Virus genome (UHGV): UHGV-0133874
Origin: a virus
Reading direction: 5' to 3' (one strand)
Length of the DNA stretch: 18,718 nucleotides
Shown: positions 163-16,612 of the stretch, piece by piece
How positions within the stretch are numbered: position 1 is the first letter of the stretch
Layout of the letters: each line of letters begins with the position of its first letter
Made by a program: the position numbers and the translations under genes
The notes under the pieces: generated by a model
Seen by the model: the letters and a program-made list of their open reading frames with translations, nothing else
Told to the model about the DNA's origin: nothing
The model's database searches: none

Positions 163-221
163 AGTGAAAACAACGACTTGCAAGATAATCAATAAGTTAG
201 GTTGGTGGTCAGTGGTGGTTA

Positions 222-1274
222 TTACGGGGTAATGCCAACCGCTGCCGCCACTTTGTCGCCACTTGGCAGCGTTGCCAGAGGATTGAAACGGAGCGCCGTT
301 TCCAGATGATCCGGTGCCAGATGTGCGTAACGCATAGTCATTTTTATATCGTGGTGTCCGAGAATTTTTTGTAAGGCCAGAATGTTTCCACCCGACATCA
401 TGAAGTGCGCCGCAAACGTATGGCGCAGAACGTGTGTGAGTTGACCGCGAGGGAGCACGATAGACGTTTTTTCCATCACGGATAAAAATTGAAAATAGCA
501 GTCTGTGAAGAAATTGAACCCATCAAGCGCCATGATCTCTTCGTAAAGCTCTTTACTGATAGGGATGCTTCTGTTTTTCTTCCCCTTCGTTCTTACAAAG
601 GTAATTCGGTATTTGGTCACCTGTGAACGAGTAAGATTTACGGCTTCTCGCCAGCGTGCGCCTGTGCTTAAGCATATCTTAACTACCAGTGCCAGAATTG
701 GGTCCTGACGTTTGCAATCAGCCAGTAATTCAACAATCTGCTCATGGGTAAGCCATGCCATCTCTTTTTCTGCGATGGTGAATTTTCGCATGTTCTCCAG
801 TGGGTTCGGATACGACCATTCGCCCAGGCGGGATAGTTCGCTAAAAACACTACTTAGATAGCTTTGCTCCAGGTTAATGGTGACCGGGCTTGCTCCTTTC
901 TTCCATTTCTCGCTGAAGTAGATCTCACCTGTCAGGCGTTTATCTCGATAGTGGGCAAACATTTTAGAGGTTAGATCAGTTGCAAGGGGATTGCCCAGAG
1001 CGTCAACCATCAGCAGCAATTTGTCATAGACATGCTGCCCAGCAGTCAGTGATTTACCATGTAGTTTGAACCATAGCTCAACCACGTCTTTCAGTGTTCG
1101 ACGATCCACTGATTCACCTAGCCAGGGCTTTGCTTCGGTTTCTTCCATCGTGTGACGCTCAAAAGCCAGTGCTTCGCCTTTGGTGGCGAATTGTTTACGC
1201 ACACGACGCCCACTACGTCCGGCGGGGTAACATTCGCAAAGCCATTTTCCTGTGGTGAGTTTTCGTACAGCCAT
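222..1274 (-). CDS. int: Tyrosine-type site-specific integrase (P2/186 Int family)
   Basis: 351-aa product from ATG at 1272-1274 (MAVRKLTTGKWLCECYP...); C-terminal HxxR...Y catalytic region (HVLRHTFAAHF...MRYAHL). The longer ORF-track start at 1352 is probably an upstream extension. Confidence 0.9.
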   Translation of the reverse strand: MAVRKLTTGKWLCECYPAGRSGRRVRKQFATKGEALAFERHTMEETEAKPWLGESVDRRTLKDVVELWFKLHGKSLTAGQHVYDKLLLMVDALGNPLATDLTSKMFAHYRDKRLTGEIYFSEKWKKGASPVTINLEQSYLSSVFSELSRLGEWSYPNPLENMRKFTIAEKEMAWLTHEQIVELLADCKRQDPILALVVKICLSTGARWREAVNLTRSQVTKYRITFVRTKGKKNRSIPISKELYEEIMALDGFNFFTDCYFQFLSVMEKTSIVLPRGQLTHVLRHTFAAHFMMSGGNILALQKILGHHDIKMTMRYAHLAPDHLETALRFNPLATLPSGDKVAAAVGITP

Positions 1275-1462
1275 AAAAAATGCCCTCCAATAGAGAGCAT
1301 TTTTACTGTATGTATAACCAGTGTCAATGTATGAAATCCTGCGACCATACATCTCACTGAAGCCATAATGAAGTAGGCTATTCTTTTTGCTATGTGATCA
1401 TGTAACTTTTGCGGTTAACCTGTGGCTCATTTTTATTTTAGGCGCAGATATAAAAGCAAAAG

Positions 1463-1654
1463 TTATCGTGAGTTTTTAGTACAGATTTTTTTGGATTTAC
1501 TAATAGTTCCATCATTGCAAACGAATTTGCCATCAGAGGTACAGTGAGAAACACCTCCCTTTTTCCCTGAGCAGGGATAATTTCTAGCATAGGTAGCTAG
1601 TGGGTTTAATAACAAAGAACATGACAAAACCACAAAAAATACCTTACCAAGCAT
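1463..1654 (-). CDS. Small (63 aa) predicted secreted peptide with N-terminal signal peptide and 4 Cys in the mature part; unknown function
   Basis: Hydrophobic N-terminus [23 protein letters not shown] with A-x-A-like cleavage site; GGAG 7 nt upstream of the ATG; AT-rich relative to neighbours; sits between cI and int on the same strand. Confidence 0.5.
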
Positions 1655-1669
1655 AATTTTCTCCCGGTA

Positions 1670-2239
1670 CTATTTAACATACTTGACTGTTAAACTTATA
1701 ATTTTACCAATTATTTCAATGTCTTCTATCTTACATTCAAAGGCTCTGTTTCCACCCTCGACGAAGATTCTTCCACCGGGTAAACGAGTAATGTCACGGA
1801 TCGTTATTTCGCCATCAATACTTATTACCCATTTACCATCACGTATATCATCAAATTCCTTATCACAAATAAATTCAGAATTATTATCTGTGATTACAAA
1901 AAGATTCTTGAATGCCGACGGTAGAAATTCTCTATCGAAAATATAAAAACCGTCTTCACACAAGGCCCCATCAGATAATACATATTTAGCAACTTCCATA
2001 GTATTTGTATTACCTGAAGTTTGCTTTGAACCATGCCCGGTTGTGAGCCAATTAAGCGAGGTGCCTGTTTCAAGGGCGCACTGGATTACCCATTCTGCTG
2101 GGAATGAGTCACGCATGTAGCGTGTGGCGAGTGTACTTTTAGAGATTCCTAAATGATCGCACAACGCCTGTCGAGTCTTGAATCCATAAGCTTCTACCAT
2201 GCGCTCTATGGCGCCTCGTCCGCCTTTCTCCAAATTCAT
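1670..2239 (-). CDS. cI: 186-type CI immunity repressor (N-terminal HTH, C-terminal oligomerisation domain)
   Basis: 189-aa product from ATG at 2237-2239 with GGAG 5 nt upstream; size and position (divergent from apl/cII, upstream of int) match the 186 CI repressor. Confidence 0.85.
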   Translation of the reverse strand: MNLEKGGRGAIERMVEAYGFKTRQALCDHLGISKSTLATRYMRDSFPAEWVIQCALETGTSLNWLTTGHGSKQTSGNTNTMEVAKYVLSDGALCEDGFYIFDREFLPSAFKNLFVITDNNSEFICDKEFDDIRDGKWVISIDGEITIRDITRLPGGRIFVEGGNRAFECKIEDIEIIGKIISLTVKYVK

Positions 2240-2263
2240 GGTCACTCCAAGTGAACTTTTATC

Positions 2264-2292
2264 TTGACGATTTCACCGCGCGATCGTATGTT
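2264..2292 (+). promoter_or_regulatory. Candidate lytic promoter pR (-35 TTGACG, 17-bp spacer, -10 TATGTT) in the cI/apl switch region
   Basis: Sigma70-like hexamers read directly from the sequence, oriented towards apl/cII. Confidence 0.35.
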
Positions 2293-2364
2293 TATGGTGT
2301 TCACAAAATACAAACGATCCGTATTCGTCCTGATTAATCATCATTAAACGAGGAATGTTGCATC

Positions 2365-2586
2365 ATGAGACCTAACATTTCAATCACTCTTACCACGCCT
2401 CATGTGACTATTGAACGCTATAGCGAGCTGACAGGGCTATCCATCGATACCATCAATGACATGTTGGCTGATGGACGCCTTATCCGTCACCGTCTGCGCA
2501 AAGATAAAAAACGCGAAAAAGTGATGATCAACATAGCAGCAATGACCGTTGATGCGCTTTCAGAATGCAATCTAAACCTTAATTAG
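2365..2586 (+). CDS. Small HTH protein at the apl/cox position (putative excisionase and repressor of the lysogenic promoter)
   Basis: 73-aa ORF, first gene rightward of the switch region; assignment is mainly positional. Confidence 0.6.
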
Positions 2587-2618
2587 TTCGATTCTGAAAT
2601 ACATCAGAGGCATTGACC

Positions 2619-3128
2619 ATGTTTGATTACCAAGTTTCCAAACATCCACATTTTGATGAAGCCTGTCGTGCATTTGCACTGCGCCACAATCTGGTGCAAC
2701 TGGCAGAACGTGCAGGCATGAATGTGCAGATTCTGCGGAACAAGCTGAACCCAGCTCAGCCTCATTTATTAACCGCACCAGAAATCTGGCTGCTTACCGA
2801 TCTGACTGAAGATTCAACGCTGGTAGATGGTTTTCTGGCACAGATTCATTGTCTGCCATGTGTACCGATTAATGAGGTGGCAAAAGAGAAACTGCCACAT
2901 TACGTCATGAGTGCAACCGCAGAGATCGGGCGTGTTGCTGCAGGTGCGGTGTCTGGCGATGTAAAAACCTGTGCCGGTCGTCGTGATGCTATCAGCAGCA
3001 TTAACTCTGTAACACGACTGATGGCGCTGGCGGCTGTTTCATTGCAGGCCCGTTTACAGGCTAATCCTGCGATGGCGAGTGCAGTTGATACCGTGACTGG
3101 CCTCGGTGCTTCATTTGGTTTGCTGTGA
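2619..3128 (+). CDS. cII: 186-type CII lysogeny-establishment activator
   Basis: 169-aa product from ATG at 2619 (GAGG 8 nt upstream), the same length as 186 CII; positioned after apl. Confidence 0.8.
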
Positions 3129-3135
3129 GGTGCTT

Positions 3136-3336
3136 ATGCTGACGAAAGAACCATCATTTGCATCGCTGCTGGTTAAACAAAGCCCGGCAATGCATTACGG
3201 TCACGGCTGGATCATGGGGGAGGATGGTAAACGCTGGCATCCGTGCCGTTCACAAGATGAATTGCTGGCAGAACTATCTACGAAAAAACGGGGGAACAAA
3301 TGGCTATTGAAGGCACTGCGGCGACTGTTCCATTAA
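3136..3336 (+). CDS. Small early-region protein, unknown function (position of 186 fil/dhr-type genes)
   Basis: 66-aa ORF from ATG at 3136 with GAGG 5 nt upstream, immediately after the cII stop. Confidence 0.5.
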   Translation: MLTKEPSFASLLVKQSPAMHYGHGWIMGEDGKRWHPCRSQDELLAELSTKKRGNKWLLKALRRLFH

Positions 3337-3641
3337 GCCCCGGTGAACGCCTGAATGGACTTAATCACATTGCGGAGTTAAGGGCGAAAGTTTTTGGCCT
3401 GAATATTGAGTCAGAGCTTGAGCGGTTTATTAAAGATATGCGTGATTCACGGGATATTAATAGCGAACAAAATAAACGGGCACTGGCTGCCATATTCTTT
3501 ATGGCAAAAATTCCAGCTGAACGTCATAGCATCAGCATTAATGAGCTGACCACTGACGAAAAGCGGGAGTTGATTAAAGCAATGAATCATTTTCGTGCAG
3601 TGGTGAGCTTATTTCCCAGACGGCTAACCATGCCGAATTAA
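3300..3641 (+). CDS. Early-region hypothetical protein
   Basis: 113-aa ORF, GGGGA upstream of ATG at 3300; overlaps the preceding ORF by 37 nt, so the true start may be further downstream. Confidence 0.5.
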   Translation: MAIEGTAATVPLSPGERLNGLNHIAELRAKVFGLNIESELERFIKDMRDSRDINSEQNKRALAAIFFMAKIPAERHSISINELTTDEKRELIKAMNHFRAVVSLFPRRLTMPN

Positions 3642-3708
3642 CCAACTAATGAAATTAATGGCGTAAACCCGCCGGGCATCCCTTTATCTAAATTCAGGAG
3701 AATTGATT

Positions 3709-3942
3709 ATGCGTAATATTGAAACCCTCTCGACCAAAACCGGACCGGATGACGCAGGGCTTAATATTTTACTGACAGAGGCTCGTCTGGAAGAACGCCG
3801 GGCAAGGGCTGAAGCAATGGCAGCTCGCCTTGATAGCCTGGCGTGTCATATCACATCCCGCCAGCTAACCCACGTCGAAGCGGCAGAACTGCTTCGTGTG
3901 ACTGCTGAAGCAATCCAGAACGAAGCGCAGGAGATCCACTAA
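3709..3942 (+). CDS. Early-region hypothetical protein (77 aa)
   Basis: ATG at 3709 with AGGAG 8 nt upstream; stop overlaps the next start (TAATG). Confidence 0.55.
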   Translation: MRNIETLSTKTGPDDAGLNILLTEARLEERRARAEAMAARLDSLACHITSRQLTHVEAAELLRVTAEAIQNEAQEIH

Positions 3943-4169
3943 TGGCTGATGCAATGGATCTCGTACAGCAGCGCGTTGAAGAAGAACGCCAACGCCATAT
4001 CCGTGCTGCCCGTGCCAAAACGCCGGGCGTGTCCCGCGTGCTTTGCATTGAGTGTGAAGCGCCAATTCCGCCAGCACGCCGCCGTGCCATTCCGGGTGTG
4101 CAGCTTTGCATTACCTGTCAGGAAATCGCAGAGCTGAAAGGCAAACATTACAACGGAGGTGCTGTATGA
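3942..4169 (+). CDS. TraR/DksA-family C4 zinc-finger protein (phage TraR-like)
   Basis: 75 aa with CxxC-N17-CxxC (CIECEAP...CITCQE); AGGAG upstream. Confidence 0.8.
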   Translation: MADAMDLVQQRVEEERQRHIRAARAKTPGVSRVLCIECEAPIPPARRRAIPGVQLCITCQEIAELKGKHYNGGAV

Positions 4170-5023
4170 GCACCATCCTGAAATGGGCGGGAAATAAAAC
4201 CGCCATTATGTCCGAACTGAAAAAACATCTTCCTGCTGGCCCGCGACTGGTTGAACCTTTCGCGGGTTCCTGTGCTGTGATGATGGAGACGGATTACCCC
4301 AGCTATCTTGTTGCGGATATTAATCCTGATTTAATCAACCTCTATAAAAAGGTTGCTGCTGATTGCAAGGCGTTTATATCTCGTGCCAGAGCTTTATTTG
4401 AGGAAGCAAACAGGGATGTGGCTTATTACAACATAAGGCAGGAGTTTAATTACTCCACTGAAATTACTGATTTCATGAAAGCGGTATATTTCCTGTATCT
4501 CAATCGTCATGGTTACCGTGGGTTATGTCGCTATAACAAGAGCGGGCATTTCAACATTCCGTACGGTAATTATAAAAATCCGTATTTCCCTGAAAAAGAA
4601 ATTCGCGCATTTGCAGAGAAAGCCCAGCGGGCAACGTTTATCTGCGCCAGCTTTGATGAAACGCTGGCGATGCTGCAGGTGGGGGATGTGGTGTATTGCG
4701 ATCCGCCGTATGACGGTACGTTTTCCGGCTATCACACTGATGGTTTCACTGAAGATGACCAGTATCACCTGGCATCCGTTCTTGAACATCGATCATCAGA
4801 AGGATATCCGGTCATTGTTTCTAACAGTGACACATCCCTGATCCGTTCGCTGTATCGCAATTTTACTCACCACTACATCAAGGCAAAACGCAGCATCGGT
4901 GTGGCAGCTGGTGAGAGTAAATCTGCAACAGAAATCATCGCTGTTTCCGGGCCGCGCTGCTGGGTGGGATTTGATCCTTCGCGTGGCGTGGATAGTTCAG
5001 CCGTGTACGGAGTACGTGCATGA
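4166..5023 (+). CDS. dam: DNA adenine methyltransferase, Dam family (probably GATC-specific, N6-adenine)
   Basis: 285-aa product aligns along its length with E. coli Dam as recalled: [15 protein letters not shown] (AdoMet motif), [19 protein letters not shown] catalytic motif; GGAGG 6 nt upstream of ATG 4166. Confidence 0.9.
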
Positions 5024-7434
5024 GTCATGCCGATATGAACAACTGCTGCGGCTTTAACGAGGCTGCCGCAGCGTTCTCATGGAACAGCCCGAAAAAGGCC
5101 ATTAACCCTTATCTGGACCCGGCGGAAGTTGCGCCGGTTTCTGCGCTTTCAAACCTGATCACTCTGTACGCTGCCGATAACGAGCAGGAACAACTGCGCC
5201 GCGAGGCACTGAGTGATCAGGTCTGGGAGCGTTATTTTTTTAATGAATCACGTGATCCTGTCCAGCGCGAAATGGAGCAGGATAAGCTCATTAGCCGGGC
5301 AAAGCTGGCGCATGAGCAGCAGCGTTTTAATCCGGATATGGTCATTCTGGCGGACGTCAACGCCCAGCCTTCCCATATCAGCAAGCCGCTGATGCAACGT
5401 ATTGAATACTTCAGCAGCCTGTGCAGGCCAAAGGCTTATTCCCGCTATTTACGTGAGACAATTAAGCCATGTCTGGAACGACTGGAGCATGTACGCGACA
5501 GCCAGCTATCTGCATCTTTTCGTTTTATGGCAAGCCATGAAGGGCTGGACGGCCTGCTTATCCTGCCTGAAATGAGTCAGGATCAGGTGAAGCGCCTGTC
5601 TACCCTTGTCGCTGCGCATATGAGCATGTGCCTTGATGCCGCTTGTGGTGATTTGTATGCCACCGATGACGTTAAGCCAGAAGAAATCCGCAAAACATGG
5701 GAAAAGGTGGCAGCGGAAACCCTGCGTCTGGATGTTATTCCGCCTGCGTTTGAGCAACTCCGTCGGAAAAGAAACCGCCGTAAACCCGTGCCCTATGAAC
5801 TCATTCCGGGTTCGCTGGCGCGTATGTTGTGTGCCGACTGGTGGTATCGGAAATTATGGAAGATGCGTTGCGAATGGCGGGAAGAGCAGTTGCGTGCTGT
5901 CTGCTTGGTCAGCAAAAAAGCATCTCCCTATGTCAGCTATGAAGCCGTGATGCATAAACGTGAGCAGCGCCGTAAGTCGCTGGAGTTTTTCCGTTCTCAT
6001 GAACTGGTGAACGAAGACGGCGACACGCTGGACATGGAGGATGTGGTAAACGCCAGCAGCAGCAACCCGGCGCATCGCCGCAACGAGATGATGGCCTGTG
6101 TTAAAGGCTTGGAGCTTATCGCGGAAATGCGTGGTGACTGCGCCGTTTTCTACACCATCACCTGTCCGTCACGTTTCCATTCCACGCTAAATAACGGCAG
6201 GCCAAACCCGACCTGGACCAACGCGACAGTAAGACAAAGCAGCGATTATCTGGTCGGCATGTTTGCTGCATTTCGTAAGGCTATGCACAAAGCCGGGTTG
6301 CGCTGGTATGGCGTGCGGGTGGCTGAGCCGCATCATGACGGCACAGTTCACTGGCACCTGTTGTGTTTCATGCGCAAAAAAGACCGCCGCGCCATTACTG
6401 CATTGTTGCGTAAGTTTGCCATCCGTGAAGACCGCGAGGAGCTGGGCAATAACACGGGGCCACGCTTTAAGTCTGAGCTGATAAACCCGCGCAAAGGAAC
6501 GCCGACAAGCTACATTGCGAAATATATCAGTAAGAATATTGACGGGCGTGGTCTGGCTGGCGAGATCAGTAAGGAAACGGGTAAATCCCTGCGTGATAAC
6601 GCTGAATACGTTAATGCCTGGGCGTCTCTGCATCGTGTTCAGCAATTCCGCTTCTTTGGCATTCCGGGGCGTCAGGCTTACCGTGAACTGCGATTGCTGG
6701 CTGGTCAGGCGGCAAGGCAACAGGGTGACAAAAAAGCAGGTGCGCCGGTACTGGATAACCCGCGCCTTGATGCCATCCTGGCTGCTGCTGATGCTGGTTG
6801 TTTTGCCACTTACATCATGAAGCAGGGCGGCGTACTGGTTCCCCGCAAATATCACCTCATCAGAACCGCTTATGAAATAAACGAAGAGCCAACCGCCTAT
6901 GGCGATCACGGTATTCGTATTTATGGCATCTGGTCACCCATTGCAGAGGGCAAGATCTGCACTCATGCAGTGAAGTGGAAAATGGTTCGTAAGGCCGTTG
7001 ACGTTCAGGAGGCGGCAGCCGACCAGGGCGCTTGCGCCCCTTGGACTCGTGGCAATAACTGTCCCCTTGCTGAAAATTTGTACCAACAAGGGAAAGACAA
7101 ATCAGCTGATGGGGATACCAGAACGGATATCACCCGTATGGATGACAAGGAGTTGCACGATTACCTGCACAGTATGAACAAAAAAGAACGCCGGGAACTG
7201 GCTGCAAGGTTACGCCTGGTGAAACCGAAACGGCGTAGAGACTACAAACAGCGAATTACAGACCATCAACGACAGCAGCTCGTCTATGAACTGAAGTCCA
7301 GAGGATTTGATGGCAGCGAGAAAGAGGTCGATTTACTCCTTCGCGGCGGCAGTATTCCGTCAGGAGCAGGCCTGCGTATCTTCTATCGGAACCAGCGTTT
7401 GCAGGAAGATGATAAGTGGCGGGATCTGTATTAA
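5020..7434 (+). CDS. A: P2 gpA-type rolling-circle replication initiator (nicking endonuclease)
   Basis: 804 aa; HxH-type metal-binding motif ([10 protein letters not shown]) and tyrosine-containing active-site segment ([11 protein letters not shown]); start overlaps the dam stop (ATGA). Confidence 0.9.
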
Positions 7435-7503
7435 TTACGCGGGTTAACAATTCGTGCTCTTAATAATACCAGGCATATCAGGCTGATGAACGTAAAAAAA
7501 CGT

Positions 7504-7546
7504 TTTACATCAGTAAGATTATTATATACTGTAAATATAAACAGTG
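7504..7546 (+). promoter_or_regulatory. SOS-regulated promoter with LexA operator (CTGTAAATATAAACAG, 7529-7544)
   Basis: Near-consensus LexA box CTGT-N8-ACAG with AT-rich centre and TA/TG flanks, overlapping a -10-like TATACT (7525-7530), with -35-like TTTACA at 7504-7509. Confidence 0.7.
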
Positions 7547-7587
7547 GTTATGTGTACAGTATTGCTTGTGGTGTCATAGGAGGAAAA

Positions 7588-7776
7588 ATGCAGGACTATT
7601 TTTTGGAGTCTTTGAAGCTCCAGCGCATTGATTTTTTTCTTAAGCTTGTAGCGGCTAGTGAGTGTAGTGATGAAGAGAAGGGGCTGGCTCTGCAGTGGGT
7701 TTCTGAATTGACTGATGAACTCATGGCAAAAATCAGAAGCCACGAATACAACCGCTCAATGGATGTCATCAGCTGA
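7588..7776 (+). CDS. 62-aa ORF, first gene after the LexA box; possibly the N-terminal part of a disrupted tum-like antirepressor gene
   Basis: ATG at 7588 with AGGAGG 4 nt upstream; frame ends 10 nt before the DinI-like ORF, which is in the +1 frame. Confidence 0.5.
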   Translation: MQDYFLESLKLQRIDFFLKLVAASECSDEEKGLALQWVSELTDELMAKIRSHEYNRSMDVIS

Positions 7777-7786
7777 GGTGACTTTT

Positions 7787-8020
7787 ATGCGCATTGAAAT
7801 AATGATCGATAAAGAGCAGAAAATTAGCCAGTCTACCCTGGACGCCCTTGAATCCGAGCTTTACCGCAATCTGCGCCCCCTGTATCCCAAAACGGTAATT
7901 CGTATCCGCAAAGGTAGCTCTAACGGTGTGGAACTGACCGGACTGCAACTGGACGAAGAAAGAAAACAAGTGATGAAAATTATGCAGAAGGTGTGGGAAG
8001 ACGACAGCTGGCTGCATTAA
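7787..8020 (+). CDS. DinI-family protein (DinI / 186 Tum C-terminal-domain-like)
   Basis: 77 aa, MRIEIMIDKEQK...LDALESEL...KVWEDDSWLH matches E. coli DinI as recalled (MRIEVTIAK...IDALAGEL...ETWESADDWF); GAGGTG 6 nt upstream of the ATG. Confidence 0.75.
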   Translation: MRIEIMIDKEQKISQSTLDALESELYRNLRPLYPKTVIRIRKGSSNGVELTGLQLDEERKQVMKIMQKVWEDDSWLH

Positions 8021-8525
8021 GAAACGTTGCTGGCGTCTGAACTTGCTTCTGGCGTCAGCAAGGTTGAACAACGAGCTGTGCGAGGCGTTAGCCATCTGAT
8101 CAAAAGACATCAAATATCATATTGTATATCGTGGTCAAACGCTGGAAACTATCATTCCCGGTCAGAGGGGCTTCTTTCAATGTCCAAAAGAGTGAGATAG
8201 AGGATACAGGATGGGAAGAGCTTATGATGATTGTTCTTGGATTGACTTGGAATATTTGATGTCCATTATCTAATGGACTTGGTCTTGATAGTTATCACGA
8301 AAGAGGAAGCCAACGTCATGTATTTGAAGAGTATCTCTTACCTTTTGATTAATTATTGTCCAAGTTTTTCAAAAGCTTCTTATCTGGCGGTCGATACATG
8401 ATTTACTGTTGGATATGGTATTTAAAATTAATCTTTACACTGTGGTATATGCAGAATAGGATATTATCAATACAATCAAACCGTTTTCATACGGTTGTTA
8501 ATATTGCAATGTTATAGGTAATGTC

Positions 8526-9644
8526 ATGTATCTTTTCAAGTATTACCGTCCGGACTTCTTCTTCGAGAAAGCTATTCGTTATAATGAATTATATTTTTCC
8601 GCTCCTGCGCAATTGAATGATCCTAATGATCTCAATATAGATTATCGTTTTGATAATAAATTGAAATTATGGGATATTTTATTGCGTTCTCCTTGCGATA
8701 AATCCTATGAAAATTTGAGTCACATATTAGATTTGAGTAATTTGAAGATACATAAGGGATTGAATCGTATTTTTAGAGGAAAAAAAATAAAAAGTAGCAT
8801 TGAGTCATTAGATAGCCTGTTTGACTCACACGTTGATGAGATACGTAAGATCATAAATGATGGTTTACTACCTATCAATGTGATTAATTCCGCTATTTAT
8901 GGGAATATTCCTGAACCACGCCAATTTTTGGTCTCACTTTGCGAGAACAGTATCAAAGAAAGGTTGTATAGGAAAATAGTTCCTGCAGTATTCAGTGTGT
9001 CATTTTCAGCTAATGCGTTAGATCGTATGATGTGGGCGCATTATGCTGCAGGCTTTAGTGGTTGTGTTGTGATTTATGAAACGCAGGATTTTAATATTAA
9101 TGGCGTGCCACATCCTGGAATGAAGCTAAGAGAAAATTTATTTTCATCAGATAAATTTAATTTTCCAGTTAAGCAAATAAAATATAGTAATCAGGCTAAA
9201 GAGGTTTCACTTCTAGACCCAAGCGCAAATGTTGCAGAGTTATTTTTAACTAAAAATAGATTTTGGAGATATGAAGCTGAATATCGAATGTTTATTCCAG
9301 AGGCAAATGCAGGAATAGGGAGTGAGCGGCATGTTCAAAGACGCGTAAATCGAAATATTGGACATATTTTTCATCATGATGCTAATGTTGTTAAAGGGAT
9401 CATTTTTGGTCCTAGAATGTGTGAAATGAAAAAAGAAAGCATATGGAATTGTATCAAGTCAAATATGGAGAATTCAAATTCAACAATATGTTATTTTTTT
9501 GACTCTGAGTTATCAGCATCAGGAAAGATTACTATTTCAAAAGGGCAACGAGCGGAAAAAATGAAAAATTTCCCTTTGTTCAGGAACAAGTTAAGTCAGA
9601 CGGAAATGGCTAAAGTTTTGAAGGAAATTGGCATTACGAACTAA
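8526..9644 (+). CDS. DUF2971-like protein (372 aa), function unknown; candidate accessory/defence gene
   Basis: N-terminal pattern FKYYRPDFF...NELYFSAPAQLNDPND and central MWAHYAAGFSGCVVIYE resemble what I recall of the DUF2971 signature; gene is markedly AT-rich versus the phage backbone and sits alone between tum and cos. Confidence 0.6.
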   Translation: MYLFKYYRPDFFFEKAIRYNELYFSAPAQLNDPNDLNIDYRFDNKLKLWDILLRSPCDKSYENLSHILDLSNLKIHKGLNRIFRGKKIKSSIESLDSLFDSHVDEIRKIINDGLLPINVINSAIYGNIPEPRQFLVSLCENSIKERLYRKIVPAVFSVSFSANALDRMMWAHYAAGFSGCVVIYETQDFNINGVPHPGMKLRENLFSSDKFNFPVKQIKYSNQAKEVSLLDPSANVAELFLTKNRFWRYEAEYRMFIPEANAGIGSERHVQRRVNRNIGHIFHHDANVVKGIIFGPRMCEMKKESIWNCIKSNMENSNSTICYFFDSELSASGKITISKGQRAEKMKNFPLFRNKLSQTEMAKVLKEIGITN

Positions 9645-9710
9645 CCTAACAACAGTGCATGCCTATGCTGCCTGAATTTGCATGACCGTTTGAGGATCGT
9701 TTTTGCTAAG

Positions 9711-9735
9711 GCCCGCCAGAACTGGCGGGCTTTTG
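9711..9735 (+). terminator. Rho-independent terminator after the DUF2971-like gene
   Basis: GCCCGCCAG-aa-CTGGCGGGC perfect 9-bp GC-rich stem followed by TTTTG. Confidence 0.7.
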
Positions 9736-9779
9736 CGTGGATCAGGCACCTGCATGAAAACCACTACACAAAGCGGGCA

Positions 9780-9798
9780 GGCGTGGCGGGGATACGAG
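9780..9798. other. Candidate cos cohesive-end sequence (GGCGTGGCGGGGATACGAG)
   Basis: First 13 nt match the 186/P2 cohesive-end sequence as I recall it (186 GGCGTGGCGGGGAAAGCAT); lies between the replication/tum arm and the portal gene, where cos sits in 186. Confidence 0.35.
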
Positions 9799-9900
9799 CG
9801 CGCGCTAACTCATAAATCCTAGATTATTAGTGGATTTATCTCATTGAAATGTGCACTATTCCCAGCATTGAGTTGTACCAGATGTCTTTATGGAGGGACT

Positions 9901-11667
9901 GTGGCTTTTGTAACTGATATTCGGCTTGAAGATAATGCTATTGCTGCACCTGCGACAGCACAGGTTATGGCTCAGAGGCTAGGATCTGTATTACGTAAGA
10001 GATATGAAGAATTCATCCATAAAAGAGAGTGTGCACCAGGCCAAGCAGACTATGATGTAAAAATGGCTAGCAGGGCTTTAGCTGCATTCACTATGTATCA
10101 GTTAGGATGTGTGGATGATAAGTATGCAGGGGAGTCTGTATGTGATAGTAGTGAAGATGGTGGTATAGATGGAATAGCAATCAACCATAACGAAAAAATC
10201 GTTGTTGTTGTTCAATCAAAATTTCACCAATCGGGAAACGGCACTTGGACAAGAGCCGATTTTATGTGTTTTAAGGATGCTTGTGAGAAGCTACAAAGTG
10301 AAAGATACGAATTATTTGATTCCATATTGCAAAATAAAAGCGGGGAAATAAGTGCGGCTTTAAGTAGTTTTGAATACAAGTTCATCTTTGCGATGGCGCA
10401 TACAGGTAAAAAAGGTGCTGCAGAGGAAATATTAAATGATATGCGGGAATGGCAATATCAATTAAACGCTGCAGCTTTTACACCTGAGGATGAGCCTAAA
10501 GAGAACTGGGGATTTCAGGTTCATTTAATATCCTCTGAAGATATGATGCATTGGTTACAGAATGGCTCTCGAAATCAAATTGATCTTAACAGGGTTGAAA
10601 TTGAGCGTTTTGGATTTTTGAATGAACCATATCAAGCTTTTTACGGGGCTATTAGTGGTGATCAAGTTGCAGAATGGTGGGAAGAGCATGGTGCTCGATT
10701 ATTTACAAAAAACATAAGGAATATGCTTGGTAAAACAGAAGTGAATGAGGAAATAAAAAAGACAGCTATAGATAATCCTGATATGTTTTGGTTTTATAAT
10801 AATGGGATTACTGTACTGGTTAAGGAAGTTGTTCCTCATAGACGAAACGCAGCTCCTAATATAGAGAGAGGGATTTTTGATTTTCGTGATGTAAGTGTCA
10901 TTAATGGTGCACAAACAGTCAGTAGTATTGGCGCATGTAAAGATGCACTTGGTGAAAACATATATAGACTCAAAGTGCCAGCTAGATTCATTGTTATAGA
11001 TGATGATACTGATAATTTAACTGCAAATGCAATTACAAAAGCTAACAATTTCCAAAATAGAGTATTGGGAAGAGATTTTGCATCGCAGCAGGCAGATCAA
11101 CATAGATTGGCAAGGGAGTTAGTGCTTGAAGGATATCAATATCAGTTACTAAGAACAGATGAAGATCATTCACAGACAAATACGAAAGTCATTGACTTGG
11201 ATGAGGCGCTCAATGCACTCGCATGTTTAAGTAAAAATAATACGGTTGTATCGACACTAAAATCAAATCGCGGTAGGTTTTTTGAAAATTTTGAAGGCTC
11301 TCTATATAAAACTATTTTCAATCCAAGATTAAGTGGTTTAAAACTTATCAATACTGTTCTACATTTTAGAGTTATAGATAAGTTGATCGGTAAAACATTA
11401 CTATCAGTAGATAAAACGACCCATAGTCGCAAGCATTTAATTATTACGCATGGTAATAGATACTATGCGTCTGTACTATTGAGCAACGTTTCTGGGATAC
11501 ATAATAGCTCAGAAATTCTTGTTCCAGATGAAAAAAATCTTTCCGAAGAATTAAGTGCATTAATTCAACGTGCTGAAGAGTACATTGAAGATAATTACCC
11601 GAATGCCTATCCGGCAAGATTTTTTGCAAATCCAACGAAAATACAAGAGTTATACGATAATGTTTAA
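9901..11667 (+). CDS. Protein with N-terminal Mrr-like PD-(D/E)xK nuclease motif and AIPR-like C-terminal region (abortive-infection-type); candidate anti-phage effector
   Basis: Open frame 9844-11667 (607 aa from TTG 9844; 588 aa from GTG 9901 with GGAGGG 3 nt upstream; ATG at 9967 also in frame). DGGIDGIAI...KIVVVVQSKF resembles the Mrr catalytic D...(Q/E)xK motif; WFYNNGITVL and INGAQT resemble AIPR-family motifs as I recall them; AT-rich. Confidence 0.75.
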   Translation: MAFVTDIRLEDNAIAAPATAQVMAQRLGSVLRKRYEEFIHKRECAPGQADYDVKMASRALAAFTMYQLGCVDDKYAGESVCDSSEDGGIDGIAINHNEKIVVVVQSKFHQSGNGTWTRADFMCFKDACEKLQSERYELFDSILQNKSGEISAALSSFEYKFIFAMAHTGKKGAAEEILNDMREWQYQLNAAAFTPEDEPKENWGFQVHLISSEDMMHWLQNGSRNQIDLNRVEIERFGFLNEPYQAFYGAISGDQVAEWWEEHGARLFTKNIRNMLGKTEVNEEIKKTAIDNPDMFWFYNNGITVLVKEVVPHRRNAAPNIERGIFDFRDVSVINGAQTVSSIGACKDALGENIYRLKVPARFIVIDDDTDNLTANAITKANNFQNRVLGRDFASQQADQHRLARELVLEGYQYQLLRTDEDHSQTNTKVIDLDEALNALACLSKNNTVVSTLKSNRGRFFENFEGSLYKTIFNPRLSGLKLINTVLHFRVIDKLIGKTLLSVDKTTHSRKHLIITHGNRYYASVLLSNVSGIHNSSEILVPDEKNLSEELSALIQRAEEYIEDNYPNAYPARFFANPTKIQELYDNV

Positions 11668-11670
11668 ACT

Positions 11671-11697
11671 AAAGGGAGGTTGCCTCCCTTTTTTTTA
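11671..11697. terminator. Bidirectional rho-independent terminator between the AIPR-like gene (+) and portal gene Q (-)
   Basis: AAAGGGAGG-ttg-CCTCCCTTT hairpin flanked by a T-run on the plus strand and an A/T-rich tract on the minus strand. Confidence 0.7.
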
Positions 11698-11698
11698 A

Positions 11699-12727
11699 TT
11701 AGAAATGGTATTCTTGGAATTCAATAACACCTTCTTCTATGAAATTGTTTATTTCTTGTAATCTTTTTTGCAATGGCAATAATTCATTACGTACAAATAC
11801 TTTACTCGCCTTCTCTACATCTCCAAAGCCCCCAACATTATTAGGCATTATCCCCATCATTTGCGGCGGCACACGGTGTGCCGCCATCATGTCGTCCCGA
11901 CTCACGTTCTTGATATTCAGAAACTCATCCTTCGCCGCGACTTCTGACAACGGGATAATCTGAAGCCCGTCCTTTTTGCCGTTAGGAGAGTACATAAACA
12001 GGTTGCGGAAGTTGCCTGGCCCTTTGGCGCTTTTCATTGCGTTGCGGAGGTTGTTCACATCTTCTTGGTTCTGCGCGGCATCGGTCATGTACATGATGAA
12101 ACCTGCATGGCTGCCGTTGATGTAATACTTACGGCGGAACAGTGTGGCGGACTCGTTGAGCAGGGCTGACGGGATGGCAGAAAGATAACCTGGCAGGCCG
12201 TAGATCTCCTGGTTGATGTCCGGTTCCATCAGATGAAAAATGCTGCCTTTCGTGAACTGATACGGCTGGGCTGTCATACCGTATTGCACAAACCAGTAGG
12301 TATCCAGGTCTAATCCGCGTCGGGTGTATTTTGCCAAAGCTGGCTCAAGGGCGATAACTTCACCAAAGCGGTTCGTGCGTTTCTCCAGGTAGGCGTTACC
12401 AAATACCAGATAGTCCTGCACAAAACGCGAAAAAGCCTGCTGGCTAAGCAGCGGATGAGGGATATAGGTACTGGTCAGAATGTTGCACTTTACTGCAATC
12501 GGGGAACTGTGATGCACGGCGGCGCGGAAGGTGCGCGCCAGTCCATTAAAGCTGACGGGCGGCTCATACCAGCGATCCATCTGTACGCATTCCACATAGT
12601 CCAGCAGTTCGCGGCGGTCCAGCACGGGGATGGGATCACCAAAGCTGAAAGCCTCAGCCGTTGGGCCGTTGCTTGGTTTTGTGTCGTGATCAACTGTTAC
12701 CTGCTTGGTGTTTTTACGTTTGCTCAT
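11699..12727 (-). CDS. Q: Portal protein (P2 gpQ / 186 W family)
   Basis: 342 aa, position immediately downstream of the terminase genes on the minus strand; P2 Q is about the same length. Confidence 0.9.
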   Translation of the reverse strand: MSKRKNTKQVTVDHDTKPSNGPTAEAFSFGDPIPVLDRRELLDYVECVQMDRWYEPPVSFNGLARTFRAAVHHSSPIAVKCNILTSTYIPHPLLSQQAFSRFVQDYLVFGNAYLEKRTNRFGEVIALEPALAKYTRRGLDLDTYWFVQYGMTAQPYQFTKGSIFHLMEPDINQEIYGLPGYLSAIPSALLNESATLFRRKYYINGSHAGFIMYMTDAAQNQEDVNNLRNAMKSAKGPGNFRNLFMYSPNGKKDGLQIIPLSEVAAKDEFLNIKNVSRDDMMAAHRVPPQMMGIMPNNVGGFGDVEKASKVFVRNELLPLQKRLQEINNFIEEGVIEFQEYHF

Positions 12728-13431
12728 TCTGCCAGTTCCTTGCTAGCGAGAGGCCATTCGCACATAAACAGCATTTTCCAGTCCTTTTCTGATAATTCTT
12801 TTTTCATATCGTTCAGCCAGTTATCAGTAAACAACATTGCTCCAGATGCTGCTGCGTCATCTGCGGTGAACACCATGCTGGTTACGCTGTTGTTTCTGCA
12901 TAGCTTTTTATATTCCTGCCGTGCCTCTGGGTTAGGGCTGGGAGTGGTGTAGTAGGTGGCGTGGTAGTGTGCGTGCATAGAAATCCCTTTAGCGATGGCA
13001 ATCATATTTCTCGGTGATTCACTCCAGGCATACTCTGACACGTAAACATTTCCACTGAGTGCGGAGGTGAGACTGCTGAGGTCGGTAAAATAAATTACTG
13101 CACCATTCGGAAGCTCCAGATGACTTTTGCCTGATTTTATTTTTCCAGTGTGCGTATAAGCTGCGGCCTGGCTTAAGAATGCTGATACACAGGCTTTGAT
13201 TGCCTGCGCAGATGCTGTGCTGCAGCAGAGGAAAATCTGGTTACGCCCGGTATGCAGTGCATCGTTCAGGGCTTCATAGGAAAAAAAGAAATCCGCGCCT
13301 GCCTGGCGCATTTTTGTGAGTACACGGTTTCTACTCTTTGGGCCAGTGTTCCACTCATACTGGTAAGCAAAGAAAAAGCTATCCACCGGAAGTCCCGCGA
13401 TAGTCATGAGGTTAGTTGGGATTGGGGGCAT
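12724..13431 (-). CDS. Terminase large-subunit ATPase-domain paralog (235 aa), lacking the N-terminal and nuclease domains, with degenerate Walker motifs
   Basis: Aligns by eye to residues ~140-380 of the adjacent P protein (ALNDALHTGRNQIFL vs ALIDALLTGRNQIFL; ELPNGAVIYF vs VLPNGATLYF; TYYTTPS vs TYFSTPS; MLFMCEW vs NLLMCEF); Walker A RQIGAT is RQAGAD and Walker B LYLDEY is VYVSEY; start/stop overlaps with P (TGATG) and Q (ATGA). Confidence 0.7.
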   Translation of the reverse strand: MPPIPTNLMTIAGLPVDSFFFAYQYEWNTGPKSRNRVLTKMRQAGADFFFSYEALNDALHTGRNQIFLCCSTASAQAIKACVSAFLSQAAAYTHTGKIKSGKSHLELPNGAVIYFTDLSSLTSALSGNVYVSEYAWSESPRNMIAIAKGISMHAHYHATYYTTPSPNPEARQEYKKLCRNNSVTSMVFTADDAAASGAMLFTDNWLNDMKKELSEKDWKMLFMCEWPLASKELAE

Positions 13432-15197
13432 CAAAAAATCTCCACAATATTGCTGGTATTGGCGGATTCGCCCTGCAGCGGTTCGTTAAACAGTGCGTGC
13501 ATCGTTGCCCAGGCCAGATCGGCGTGGCTGGCTTCTTCGCTGCGGCTGGCTTCATAGGTTGGGCGGTTGCCGCTCGCGGTGGTGGCGCGACGGATTGCCA
13601 TGAATGACTGCGCTATGTCGGTGTGTCCGGCGTCAAACTCCAGACGGCGGTGGCTGATAATGTCGTAGGCCTTGAGTACCAGGGCGTTTTTAACATTGGG
13701 GTTATAGACAAACTCCCGGACGGCTGGAAAAAACGCTTTCACGTTCTCGTAAACCCCGTGGCCGACACCTGTCGAGTCGATGCCGATGTAGGTCACGTTG
13801 TACTGCTCGGTCAGTTTTTTGATGGCGTCAGCCTGGGCGCGGAAGTCCATCCCACGCCACTGGTGACGCTCAAGAATGCGGAACTTACCACCAGGCACGG
13901 CTGGCGGTGCCACCACTACGCATCCGGCGCTGTCGCCGTTTTGCGTACCTTTTGCCGGGTCATAACCGATCCACACTTCGCGCCAGCCAAACGGGCGCAG
14001 AGCCAGTGCATGAAAGTCGGTCCAGACTTCCCAGCTGTCCACCATGCACGCCTGCAGCTCGCTGAGCGGGAACACGGACGCGAGATCGTCCACAAACTCG
14101 CACATCAGCAGGTTCTGGTATTCGTCCGGGCTGTACTCCATGCGCAACTGGTCAAGGTCGAACAGGTTACAGCCGCCGCGCACCGCATCTTCCACGGTGA
14201 CTATCTGGCGGTATTGCCCGTCTGCGCACAGCAGGCCGGGGGCCAGATTGCTGTGGGACAGGTCGATGTCCACCTTGTCGGCCTTGTTGCGCCCACGGTT
14301 GAACAGCGCACCGGACCAGAACGGATAAGCACTGTGTGTCAGGCTGGATGGCGTGGAAAAATAGGTTTGTCGCCATTTTTTGTGAATAGCCATACCGGAA
14401 GCCACTTTGCGCAGCTCCTGGAATTTCGGTATCCAGAAATATTCATCCAGATACAGGTTGCCGTGATAACTCTGGGCCGTGCGGGCATTGGTGCCGAGGA
14501 AGTAAAGCGTGGCTCCGTTAGGAAGCACCATCGGATCGCCTTTCAGCTCCACCTCGACTTCTTTGGCGAAGTCTATGATGTACTGCTTAAAGACGTGAGC
14601 CTGTGCCTTACTGGCAGAAAGGAAAATCTGGTTACGTCCGGTAAGCAGGGCGTCAATCAGGGCTTCACGGGCAAAGTAAAAGGTCGCGCCGATCTGGCGT
14701 GACTTCAGCAGGTTGCGGATGCGGTTGGTTTTTCCGGCTTCCCACCAGTGGCGCTGGTAGTTGAACATGGAGGAATGGAAAATTTCTTCCAGCTTCTCAA
14801 TCTGTTCATCGGTGAAAACATTCTTTTCCGGCTGACGGCGCGGGCCTTTGTTGCGGTTGGCGACGTTAGGGTTTAAGTCGGCTTCGTTACCGCCATTGTT
14901 AAACTTGCCGATCCGCGCGTGGCGCTCCGACTGGCGCGCCAGCAGGTCAATTTCTTTGAAATCTTTCCCTTCTTTGTGCTCCTTCATAATGAGCTGGCAG
15001 TAGCGTGCGGCGGTGGTGAGCTGCATCTGATCCAGCGGCCCATAGTCACCCCACTTGTCGCGTTTTTTCCAGCTGTGAACGGTTGCAACTTTCTCGCCCA
15101 GCATTTCAGCAATGCGGGCTACGCGGTATCCCTGAAAGTACAGCAGCATGGCCTGCCGACGGGGATCGAGATCTGCGGGTGTCAGTGTGGTGTTCAT
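13431..15197 (-). CDS. P: Terminase large subunit (P2 gpP family), ATPase plus nuclease domains
   Basis: 588 aa; Walker A-like KSRQIGAT, Walker B LYLDEYFW, C-terminal nuclease-type segment IGIDSTGVGHGVYE; P2 P is ~590 aa. Confidence 0.9.
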   Translation of the reverse strand: MNTTLTPADLDPRRQAMLLYFQGYRVARIAEMLGEKVATVHSWKKRDKWGDYGPLDQMQLTTAARYCQLIMKEHKEGKDFKEIDLLARQSERHARIGKFNNGGNEADLNPNVANRNKGPRRQPEKNVFTDEQIEKLEEIFHSSMFNYQRHWWEAGKTNRIRNLLKSRQIGATFYFAREALIDALLTGRNQIFLSASKAQAHVFKQYIIDFAKEVEVELKGDPMVLPNGATLYFLGTNARTAQSYHGNLYLDEYFWIPKFQELRKVASGMAIHKKWRQTYFSTPSSLTHSAYPFWSGALFNRGRNKADKVDIDLSHSNLAPGLLCADGQYRQIVTVEDAVRGGCNLFDLDQLRMEYSPDEYQNLLMCEFVDDLASVFPLSELQACMVDSWEVWTDFHALALRPFGWREVWIGYDPAKGTQNGDSAGCVVVAPPAVPGGKFRILERHQWRGMDFRAQADAIKKLTEQYNVTYIGIDSTGVGHGVYENVKAFFPAVREFVYNPNVKNALVLKAYDIISHRRLEFDAGHTDIAQSFMAIRRATTASGNRPTYEASRSEEASHADLAWATMHALFNEPLQGESANTSNIVEIF

Positions 15198-15243
15198 GGC
15201 ACAAACCTACAGCCTTGAATGAAGGCTTTCCCCGCCTGCGGTT

Positions 15244-15261
15244 TGTGTGGTTGTCGGTACA
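15244..15261. promoter_or_regulatory. Ogr/Delta-type activator binding dyad (TGT-N12-ACA) in the divergent late promoter region between P and O
   Basis: TGTGTGGTTGTCGGTACA fits the P2-family late-promoter element; centred ~87 nt upstream of the O start codon and ~55 nt from the P start codon. Confidence 0.4.
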
Positions 15262-15339
15262 AATACCGCGCATTGTTTCACTGCCCCCATCACCGCAACC
15301 ATAAGGCTCCAGTAAGTTTTTTCTAACGGAGCACGGCTC

Positions 15340-15679
15340 ATGACAGTGAAAGCAAAGCGTTTTCGCATCGGGGTGGAAGGTGCCACCACCGACGGACGCG
15401 AAATCCAGCGTGAATGGCTGGAACAGATGGCAGCCAGCTACAACCCGGCGGTGTATACCGCGCTGATTAACCTTGAGCACATCAAGTCTTATCTGCCGGA
15501 CAGCACCTTTAACCGCTACGGCAAGGTGACGGCGCTGTTTGCTGAAGAAATCACGGAAGGTCCGCTGGCAGGCAAGATGGCGCTGTATGCCGACGTTGAG
15601 CCAACGGAGTCCCTGGTGGAACTGGTGAAAAAAGGCCAGAAATTATTCACCTCTATGGAAGTCAGCCCGAAGTTCGCTG
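15340..15679 (+). pseudogene. O: Capsid scaffold gene O, N-terminal ~110 codons only (truncated by an internal deletion)
   Basis: MTVKAKRFRIGVEGATTDGREIQ...INLEHIKSYLPDSTFNRYGKV...LFTSMEVSPKFAD matches the P2 gpO N-terminus as recalled; after ~15680 the frame reads through tape-measure sequence out of frame to a stop at 15855. Confidence 0.65.
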
Positions 15680-16612
15680 ATATCTGGTCTGTTAGGTGCT
15701 CTGCTCAGTCCGATAGGTCTTGTGGTTACTGCACTGGCGGGCGTGGCGCTGGTTGTCTGGAAATACTGGCAACCCATCACCGCATTTCTCGGTGGCGTGG
15801 TGGAAGGATTCAAAGCGGCGGCAGGTCCCATCAGTGCAGCGTTCGAACCGCTTAAGCCCGTGTTCCAGTGGATTGGCGACAAAGTGCAGGCGCTGTGGGG
15901 CTGGTTTACTGATCTGCTGACGCCCGTTAAGTCGACCTCTGCCGAACTGCAGAGCGCAGCGGCAATGGGGCGGCGATTCGGGGAGGCACTGGCGGAAGGG
16001 CTGAATATGGTCATGCATCCGCTGGACTCCCTGAAATCCGGCGTTTCCTGGTTGCTGGAGAAGCTCGGCATTGTCAGTAAAGAGGCAGCAAAGGCAAAAC
16101 TGCCGGAAAGCGTGACGCGTCAGCAACCTGCGACGGTGAATGCAGACGGTAAAGTGATGATGCCATCGGGTGGTTTTCCATCATGGGGATATGGCTTTGC
16201 GGGGATGTATGACAGCGGCGGGTATATCCCGCGCGGGCAGTTTGGCATCGTCGGTGAAAACGGGCCGGAAATTGTTAACGGCCCGGCAAATGTGACCAGC
16301 CGGAGAAATACAGCTGCACTGGCTGCCGTTGTTGCCGGAATGATGGGCGTTGCTGCCGCGCCAGCAGAGCTTCCACCGTTGCACCCTTTGGCACTTCCCG
16401 CGAAAGGTGGAGAAGCAATTGTGAGTCGCGCAGCCACTGTGCCGCTCGTTCAACGGATTGAGGCACCGACGCAGATCATCATTCAGACGCAGCCAGGACA
16501 AAGTGCGCAGGATATTGCGCGGGAGGTGGCACGCCAGCTTGATGAACGTGAACGCAGGCTGAAGGCAAAAGCCAGGAGTAACTACAGCGATCAGGGGGGA
16601 TACGACGCATGA
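15680..16612 (+). pseudogene. T: Tail tape-measure gene T, C-terminal ~300 codons only (5' portion deleted)
   Basis: Hydrophobic segment (GLLGALLSPIGLVVTALAGVALVV) and C-terminal GQFGIVGENGPEIVNGPANV typical of tape-measure C-termini; in the +1 frame relative to the O remnant, with an upstream in-frame stop at 15626-15628; followed by U and D as in P2. Confidence 0.65.

Follow-up and report, generated by a model that had tools for sequence, protein, structure and literature searches.

The interval at positions 8021-11698 of the viral genome UHGV-0133874 (18,718 nt, one strand read 5' to 3'; hereafter the window) very probably represents an occupied instance of the cos-proximal accessory-gene hotspot of Peduoviridae, in which two independent cargo slots are set around a packaging core of ~150 bp, their contents are exchanged by recombination, and the cargo itself consists of a predicted DarT-like ADP-ribosyltransferase (ART) on the left and a nuclease-AIPR protein on the right. 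The feature as such is already known as the gpA-gpQ defence hotspot adjoining cos in P2-like prophages (Rousset et al. 2022, PMC9122126), and the interval shares its hallmarks, since it lies between gene A and the portal gene, adjoins cos, and combines variable content with conserved flanks. In this anatomy, the left slot extends from an SOS-controlled DinI operon to cos, and the right one from 7 nt past the cohesive end to the stop codon of the portal gene.

A preliminary description of the window had delimited this interval as AT-rich DNA between a DinI-like and a portal gene, a view that windowed GC and codon-usage calculations (together with the Pfam assignments of the flanking genes) uphold. 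The interval has a GC content of 36.7% (vs 50.4% for the remaining window) and is the 3.7-kb stretch of lowest GC within the window, the foreign composition being broken by the cos core (left slot, 8105-9654, 0.339; cos core, 9655-9805, 0.583; right slot, 9806-11698, 0.365). The GC content at third codon positions was found to be 0.29 in the left gene and 0.25 in the right one, as compared to 0.51-0.70 in backbone genes (replication, portal and terminase). The two cargo genes were correctly seen as mutually unrelated: by Pfam and PADLOC the left one encodes a DUF2971 protein and the right one a protein of the AIPR family. Positions 1-15682 of the window are 99.987% identical to the genome of E. 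coli 1008S13 (NZ_CP147053), in which the RefSeq annotation gives the order replication endonuclease, 62-aa protein, DinI-like protein, DUF2971 protein (WP_021542067), AIPR protein (WP_021542068) and portal.

Alignment of the interval against 186, P2 and related prophages defined conserved flanks, a variable core and the breakpoints between them, in agreement with the earlier proposal of a variable-cargo hotspot. Among 5426 complete E. coli genomes, the entire interval is present in 4. Homology to other prophages at the left edge stops at 8030 (locus L006), 8104 (L007) or 8228 (L009), restarts at 9654/9655 and ends again at 9805-9817, and in loci with other right-hand cargo it returns at ~11745, which is ~15 codons inside the 3' end of the portal gene. 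The flanks, for their part, are stable: the DinI-like gene adjoins the hotspot in most of the sampled loci, and the portal gene is 82-91% identical to that of relatives carrying different right-slot cargo. Taken together, the window and 14 sampled relatives display 14 distinct left/right combinations, built from 10 kinds of left and 11 kinds of right content (empty being counted in both; Table 1). The annotated right-slot genes of the sampled loci are all on the + strand, convergent with the portal gene.

Table 1. Cargo on the two sides of cos in the 14 sampled relatives of the window.
Locus	Left slot	Right slot
E423	DarTG	AIPR
3090	hypothetical + ComF	AIPR
p10A	DUF2971	557-aa hypothetical
NS-NP030	DUF2971	PIN
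L3_E36	DUF2971 (83% identical DNA)	DUF4145
1223	empty	TIGR02391 family protein
7_33_46A	empty	empty
BL21(DE3)	hypothetical	retron St85
FCI51	hypothetical + ComF	DUF262
N17	KAP NTPase	hypothetical
PT109	HsdR-N protein	P-loop NTPase
LF82	two hypotheticals	DUF4145
PCP06171	hypothetical	DprA
RE2010	no annotated gene	different AIPR (22.6% identical)

Two of these loci deserve separate mention. In BL21(DE3) (L015) the right slot of a similarly degraded prophage, which has the same cohesive-end variant as the window, is filled by a retron St85-family effector and its reverse transcriptase (4719-6767). In E. coli PT109 (L016) the gene of the right-slot P-loop NTPase (4517-6361) is annotated with a start inside the cos core (4501-4651), and its start codon was probably mis-called in the public annotation.

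Whether the two cargo genes act as one system or as two had been left open, and their distribution settles the matter in favour of two independent modules. The DUF2971 module occurs in 27 of the 5426 genomes, 23 of which are without this AIPR gene, and the AIPR module in 12, of which 8 are without this DUF2971 gene. Across cos, the AIPR gene is partnered by DarTG or by a hypothetical protein plus ComF, and the DUF2971 gene by a 557-aa hypothetical, a PIN or a DUF4145 protein, while eight further loci give other left/right pairings (including empty/empty and empty/occupied). In the same vein, both proteins appear in Table S5A of Rousset et al. with other partners, WP_021542068 with a KAP NTPase or an AAA_21 protein and WP_021542067 with another hypothetical. 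The notion of a single two-gene defence system split by cos, to which we assign almost no probability, could appeal to the adjacency of the genes, their common strand and shared AT-richness, and above all to their joint presence in 4 genomes, where roughly 0.26 would be expected by chance. This excess is a point against independence; nonetheless, the four loci are at least 99.9% identical across all 3678 nt and therefore probably go back to one ancestral event, so that we attribute the co-occurrence to common descent on the strength of this near-identity, without a phylogeny. Furthermore, a strong hairpin and the GC-rich cos core separate the two genes, and their homologues elsewhere were never found side by side: those of the DUF2971 protein (35-63% identity) occupy a Pseudomonas chromosomal islet, a lambdoid prophage and a Lonsdalea island beside SIR2-HerA, with no common neighbour, and those of the AIPR protein (52-74% identity) stand alone in a Pseudomonas hrpA-rnf interval, a Vibrio integrase island and the nin region of a lambdoid prophage. 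In the three homologue loci viewed per family outside P2-like prophages, neither family had a conserved neighbour. Judged from these distributions, the DUF2971 and AIPR genes are two independent single-gene modules, one per side of cos.

Between left and right cargo stands the 26-mer GGCGTGGCGGGGATACGAGCGCGCGC, which is made up of a 19-nt predicted cohesive end and a following CGCGCGC; it is invariant in Salmonella phage RE2010 as well as in 14/14 E. coli loci taken from across the range of similarity. The likeness of this site to the cohesive ends of 186 and P2, which the preliminary description had recognized, held when it was aligned to the annotated ends (186, GGCGTGGCGGGGAAAGCAT; P2, GGCGAGGCGGGGAAAGCAC): the window end has 15/19 bases in common with the former and 13/19 with the latter. 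It comes closer still to the end deduced for Smp131, a P2-like phage (GGCGTGGCGGGGAGACGAG; PMC3931495), from which it differs by one base (18/19). Compared to the 19-nt GC-rich 5' form GGCG(A/T)GGCGGGGAAAGCA(C/T), it differs in the last six bases (TACGAG). The flanks of the 19-mer align as well, with AAAGCGGGCA (AAAG(C/T)GGGC(A/G)) before it and (C/T)GCGCGC after it, and blastn matched positions 9714-9805 of the window to the circularised 186 junction at 77% identity over 93 nt (E 5e-13). Upstream of the 19-mer, ~125 nt are conserved, with TGCAT repeats that align to 186 and P2; the literature describes a conserved cos region of roughly 55 bp in P2/186-type phages. By analogy with the ends of these phages, from which we also take the putative cut positions, the cohesive end of the window is a lineage-specific variant of the P2-family one.

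As a query (161 nt, 9655-9815), the cos core matches 1249 of the 5426 genomes, 1239 of them at a coverage of at least 80%, and the alignments end at query positions 149-157 (9803-9811 of the window) in all but one among the matches listed. The hairpin at 9705-9736 (z -3.0) sits inside this conserved core and is for this reason backbone and not a cargo-borne terminator, which speaks against the earlier statement that each cargo gene has a terminator of its own; we thus rejected it as the terminator of the DUF2971 gene, even if it may still act as one. The second terminator (11671-11691; fold of -15.5 kcal/mol, z -3.4) is likewise not private, being common to the AIPR and portal genes, which meet head-to-head at it, and it is the positional counterpart of 186 tW and P2 tQ. 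Directly past the cos core, ~60 nt upstream of the AIPR start codon, we observed an 8-bp inverted repeat (ATAAATCC ... GGATTTAT, 9813-9840) that is kept in the other AIPR loci (in L007, and in L006 with a single left-arm mismatch) and is, as read from the sequence, a possible operator or module boundary.

As to the manner of exchange, we propose that cargo would be swapped by recombination in the conserved flanks (DinI, cos core and portal gene) and not by transposition. High-identity blocks cross from cargo into backbone, comprising AIPR and portal up to 12658 in L007 and DinI, DUF2971 and the cos core in L008, which is the pattern expected of homologous exchange. That the AT-rich DNA instead came as a discrete mobile element (an insertion sequence, a transposon or an integron-like cassette) next to cos appears very improbable: its composition is sharply foreign, the cos core is abruptly bounded on either side and an IS5 fragment is present in the left slot of E423, but the ORF list and Pfam scans yielded no transposase, integrase or recombinase gene in 8021-11698, the module edges coincide with conserved backbone, and a repeat search around either module returned short imperfect chance repeats only, with no terminal (inverted) repeats or target-site duplications, on which grounds insertion of such an element was rejected. 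Linkage within the cos core, for which 112 variable positions were compared over 15 loci (a small sample), adds to the case for two independent slots. Pairs of loci with the same left flank (n=6, the right cargo differing in all) are 99.3% identical in the core as compared to 83.8% for other pairs, whereas pairs with the same right flank (n=3) are just 82.1% identical, so that the core goes together with the cargo on its left. In every case the left haplotype gives way to the right one inside the invariant 36 nt AAAGCGGGCA-GGCGTGGCGGGGATACGAG-CGCGCGC. This break of linkage is compatible with two explanations: either homologous recombination is confined to the sole long stretch of perfect identity, or reassortment is tied to the cutting of cos.

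The relation of this locus to the published hotspot is close, as it occupies the same site (replication gene A/DinI, cos, portal) with the same hypervariable short cargo and the same two proteins. Rousset et al. reported 1,650 gene arrangements over 18,150 gpA-gpQ loci, many of them with more than one system (PMC9122126), and a 2026 preprint (bioRxiv 10.64898/2026.02.27.708500) describes a very fast exchange of defence systems in P2 and P4, with swaps between elements that have identical core genes, and names AbiU as one of the systems of P2 hotspots. What differs is that the accessible published text treats the hotspot as single, and here it resolves into two independently assorting slots, a split that may already be contained in the figures of those papers. 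In the cloned P4-hotspot fragment of the Rousset supplement (PMC9122126) the P4 cargo begins directly after cos plus TGCGCG, and the P4 hotspot, by the start of its cargo relative to cos, is thus the positional equivalent of the right slot. The comparison with P2 old/tin made in the preliminary description captures one half of this architecture: old/tin of P2, like orf97 of 186, are exclusion genes of the accessory, non-essential kind, and their place on the map, at the right genome end between replication arm and cos, corresponds to the left slot. The other half has no counterpart there, since the gap between cos and portal (~140-180 nt) is empty in P2 and 186, where the window has a 1.9-kb module, and since old and tin lie on the opposite strand, both on one side of cos. 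Moreover, no relation to Old or Tin emerged from the Pfam and PADLOC scans of both cargos, which gave only DUF2971/PDC-S31 and AIPR/AbiU/MzaE.

The label '186-type' is appropriate for the regulatory layout and not for relatedness. The window has a 186-like CI (Phage_CI_repr and CI_C), CII/Phage_CP76, Fil, a LexA-controlled DinI and an extra ORF between portal and terminase; yet its portal region is only 66% identical to 186 at the DNA level, its cohesive end differs at 4/19 positions, and among classified phages it is nearest to Felsduovirus RE2010 and Wadgaonvirus 500465-1. With blastn against 186, no hotspot-flank match was obtained beyond cos and a 32-nt element (GTTGAACAACGAGCTGTGCGAGGCGTTAGCC, 8062-8093), these being the two stretches of the hotspot that match 186 outside coding genes. 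The element is 90.6% identical to the 186 sequence between orf97 and the terminator t95b; in 186 orf97 stands upstream of it, and in the window the cargo stands downstream. The preceding post-DinI hairpin (8023-8065) folds at -29.7 kcal/mol but with a z-score of just -1.5. The arrangement of a LexA box, a 62-aa ORF and a DinI-like gene resembles the p95-tum SOS operon of 186, but split in two genes; the LexA box, the analogue of the SOS promoter p95, marks a transcription unit directed towards the left slot, and by analogy with 186 orf97, which is SOS-responsive, read-through past the hairpin could make the left-slot cargo SOS-responsive as well. A consensus promoter scan of 7400-12000 found 19 sites, as against 16.0 +/- 4.9 in shuffled sequence, and because it performed no better than this we assigned no promoters to the cargo. 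Rfam recognized no RNA family in the interval (the sole match in the window being RybB, at its far right end).

The left-slot protein is assigned to PDC-S31 by PADLOC (3.1e-23, residues 3-312) and to phrog_1762 (5e-29), and NCBIfam holds no family for it. Its 58 full-length homologues come from many genera and reach down to 30% identity, with invariant R18, S157-x-S159, H172-Y173 and E250-x-E252, an arrangement that fits ART-type motifs. In an AF2 model (pLDDT 92.5) the predicted fold appears closest to the DarT ADP-ribosyltransferases of single-stranded DNA, with which the protein would share the ART fold and the invariant ExE-type motif E250-x-E252, and DarTG occupies the equivalent (left) slot in strain E423. 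On the other hand, the ORF list, Pfam and the RefSeq annotation revealed no macro-domain antitoxin (DarG) ORF in the left slot, similarity to DarT was not detectable at the sequence level, and DarT has ~200 aa, as compared to 372 aa in the window protein, in which large helical inserts and an extra C-terminal domain are present. A recent classification places DUF2971 among the ART-like families near DarT and AbiGi (PMC12522546), and in Lactococcus phage infection is aborted by Aristaios (PMC11381338), a system which likewise consists of one DUF2971 gene. We regard it as probable, going by the model, that the left protein is a self-contained ADP-ribosyltransferase acting on nucleic acid or protein during infection, in which case it would ADP-ribosylate nucleic acid or protein of the infecting phage and abort the infection. 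As to how it spares the host without an antitoxin gene, we infer that its helical inserts and its C-terminal domain may serve in sensing or autoinhibition.

The ORF of the right-slot protein opens at 9844, but the true start codon is a GTG at 9901, with GGAGGG as ribosome-binding site and MAFV as the conserved N-terminus that results. Most of the protein is covered by profiles of the AbiU1/AIPR family: Pfam AIPR (7e-35, 121.5 bits vs a cutoff of 25) and PADLOC AbiU (7.4e-25, residues 96-582), to which phrog_1841 ('Abi alpha-like', 7e-173) can be added. Membership in the MZA system was considered and rejected, given that the only NCBIfam match, to MzaE, is sub-threshold (58.3 bits vs an equivalog cutoff of 1050) and that no Mza partner genes (mzaABCD) stand beside the AIPR gene, whose neighbours are cos and the portal gene. 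Its 422 homologues are full-length across many genera, with invariant putative catalytic residues, and among the 120 matches listed they are mostly of ~590 aa and include those of Gammaproteobacteria and cyanobacteria; the AIPR protein in the same slot of RE2010 is only 22.6% identical. The invariant D82, D86-G-G-I-D90 and Q105-x-K107 make up a PD-(D/E)xK signature, and a second region matches ParB-like domains in the AF2 model of the protein (pLDDT 84; PadC 5.7, Pnob8 ParB 5.0, BrxU/GmrSD 5.0) and holds an invariant N335-G-A-Q-T339, which resembles DGQ(H/Q)R, a motif of the DUF262 and DndB proteins. A phmmer search against PDB chains returned nothing useful. The union of a nucleotide-binding-type domain with a nuclease recalls GmrSD/BrxU, but in the window protein the nuclease is N-terminal and of the PD-(D/E)xK type, whereas GmrSD has a C-terminal HNH/DUF1524 one. 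On the basis of this modelling, our favoured reading is that of a DNA nuclease governed by a ParB/DUF262-like module of the same chain, following a logic near that of type IV/GmrSD enzymes or causing abortive infection like AbiU; the N-terminal FokI/Mrr-like nuclease would cut DNA under control of the ParB/DUF262-like core.

The anti-phage activity, substrates and triggers that we attribute to both cargo proteins are putative and derive from their domains and neighbourhoods. Several results weigh against the reading advanced here. The Pfam score of the DUF2971 protein is marginal (22.4 bits vs a cutoff of 22), a Foldseek search of its model against PDB was negative, phmmer and the family profile found nothing useful among PDB chains, and hhalign of the DUF2971 family with the DarT of E423 gave a probability of 0.2%; the positions of cos cleavage are taken over by analogy; and the defence role of either protein is a predicted one. 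Furthermore, Rousset et al. cloned an AIPR gene of the P4 hotspot (pFR77) that is not among the active systems reported in the article (PMC9122126), and because of this the anti-phage activity of the AIPR protein cannot be assumed. This last observation would also suit the alternative that one or both cargos are not anti-phage genes (and serve another lysogenic-conversion function, act as ART toxins or effectors against eukaryotic or bacterial targets, or are selfish or decaying passengers), as would the partition systems and the cytolethal distending toxin that the hotspot carries according to the same article, the prediction that ~18% of DUF2971 proteins are secreted effectors (PMC12522546), and the status of PDC-S31 as a candidate family in PADLOC. 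We nevertheless deem this alternative unlikely, since both ORFs are intact and conserved over their full length with invariant putative catalytic residues, their homologues are found in defence islands and prophage moron sites, the DUF2971 system of Lactococcus is experimentally anti-phage, and the alternative occupants of the two slots comprise established defence systems (DarTG, retron, DUF262/GmrSD-like and DUF4145).

The element that carries this locus is a defective 18.5-kb prophage remnant, collinear with the intact relative NZ_CP147053 up to 15682. At the junction 15682/15683, the gpO scaffold gene breaks off after its N-terminal third and is joined to the ORF 15722-16612 (which the annotation of related genomes indicates to be part of the tape-measure gene), followed by gpU, gpD and ogr; the remnant lacks the genes for capsid, small terminase, lysis, baseplate, fibre, sheath and tube. 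The exact junction, searched in one piece, had no match in the collection of complete E. coli genomes. The right end of the window contains the gene of the small RNA RybB (18578-18656, - strand; Rfam, 105 bits), and the 15-nt direct repeat TAACAAAAAACCCAT (133-147 and 18577-18591) looks like an att core, in which case an element of ~18.46 kb sits at the 3' end of rybB, beside rcdA. Most sampled relatives have no equivalent of the 236-aa ORF that intervenes between portal and terminase (in them portal directly abuts terminase); this ORF was rejected as a hotspot-linked anomaly, being a normal annotated feature of 186. The coordinates of all principal features are gathered in Table 2.

Table 2. 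Features of the hotspot and its surroundings (window coordinates).
Feature	Position	Strand	Remarks
Phage_GPA replication gene A	5020-7434		Pfam 1.4e-127
Perfect LexA box CTGTAAATATAAACAG	7529-7544	+	before the orf62-DinI operon; sole zero-mismatch CTGT-N8-ACAG in the window
62-aa ORF	7588-7776		phrog_698; between LexA box and DinI-like gene
DinI-like gene	7787-8020	+	last conserved backbone gene of the left flank; Pfam DinI 1.2e-22; WP_001217575 in the identical E. coli locus
Post-DinI hairpin and 32-nt element (GTTGAACAACGAG...GCGTTAGCC)	8023-8104	+	hairpin conserved, element common to 186; fuzzy edge of the left slot
Left cargo slot	~8030/8105-9654	+	DUF2971 gene and ~420-nt upstream region; from breakpoints and GC
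DUF2971 / PDC-S31 gene	8526-9644	+	372 aa, WP_021542067; single-gene defence candidate, predicted ADP-ribosyltransferase fold
cos core	9655-9805	.	TGCAT(G) repeats, hairpin 9705-9736, 19-nt cohesive end, CGCGCGC
Predicted 19-nt cohesive end GGCGTGGCGGGGATACGAG	9780-9798	+	alignment to 186, P2 and Smp131 ends
Right cargo slot	9806 to ~11745 (portal stop side 11698)	+	AIPR gene; from breakpoints and GC
AIPR / AbiU-type gene	9901-11667	+	588 aa, WP_021542068; predicted N-terminal PD-(D/E)xK (FokI/Mrr-like) nuclease, ParB/DUF262-like core, C-terminal helical domain
Palindromic bidirectional intrinsic terminator	11671-11691	.	between convergent AIPR and portal genes; 9-bp stem, A-run upstream, T-run downstream
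Portal gene	11699-12727	-	conserved right flank; Pfam Phage_portal 3.2e-17
236-aa ORF	12724-13434	-	like the N-terminal ATPase part of the large terminase; between portal and terminase genes

More tentatively, the position of the slots invites a further hypothesis, which we consider possible and rather less than probable: lying 150 bp apart in the prophage, they occupy opposite ends of the packaged linear genome, and the cos cut or the invariant 36 nt may be the point of their reassortment, while the left protein could be an antitoxin-less DarT-like ART of nucleic acids that is silenced by its own extra domains. If this were true, one crossover anywhere, together with cos-to-cos packaging, would create a new defence pair, and the self-silenced left protein would be a new mode of control for a DarT-type toxin in E. 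coli.

In terms of discovery the locus has little to offer, since the hotspot, its link to cos and even both proteins are in the literature; what is added is a two-slot anatomy with exact coordinates and domain-level mechanisms, as predicted, for both candidates. These are two single-gene candidates with concrete predicted catalytic residues (a DarT-like ART without antitoxin gene and a nuclease-AIPR fusion), and from their assignment to two modules it follows that they should be cloned separately. Moreover, the split at the cohesive end, together with the start of the P4 hotspot that matches the right slot, may help to explain why the DNA flanking cos is an efficient site for the mixing of defence genes.

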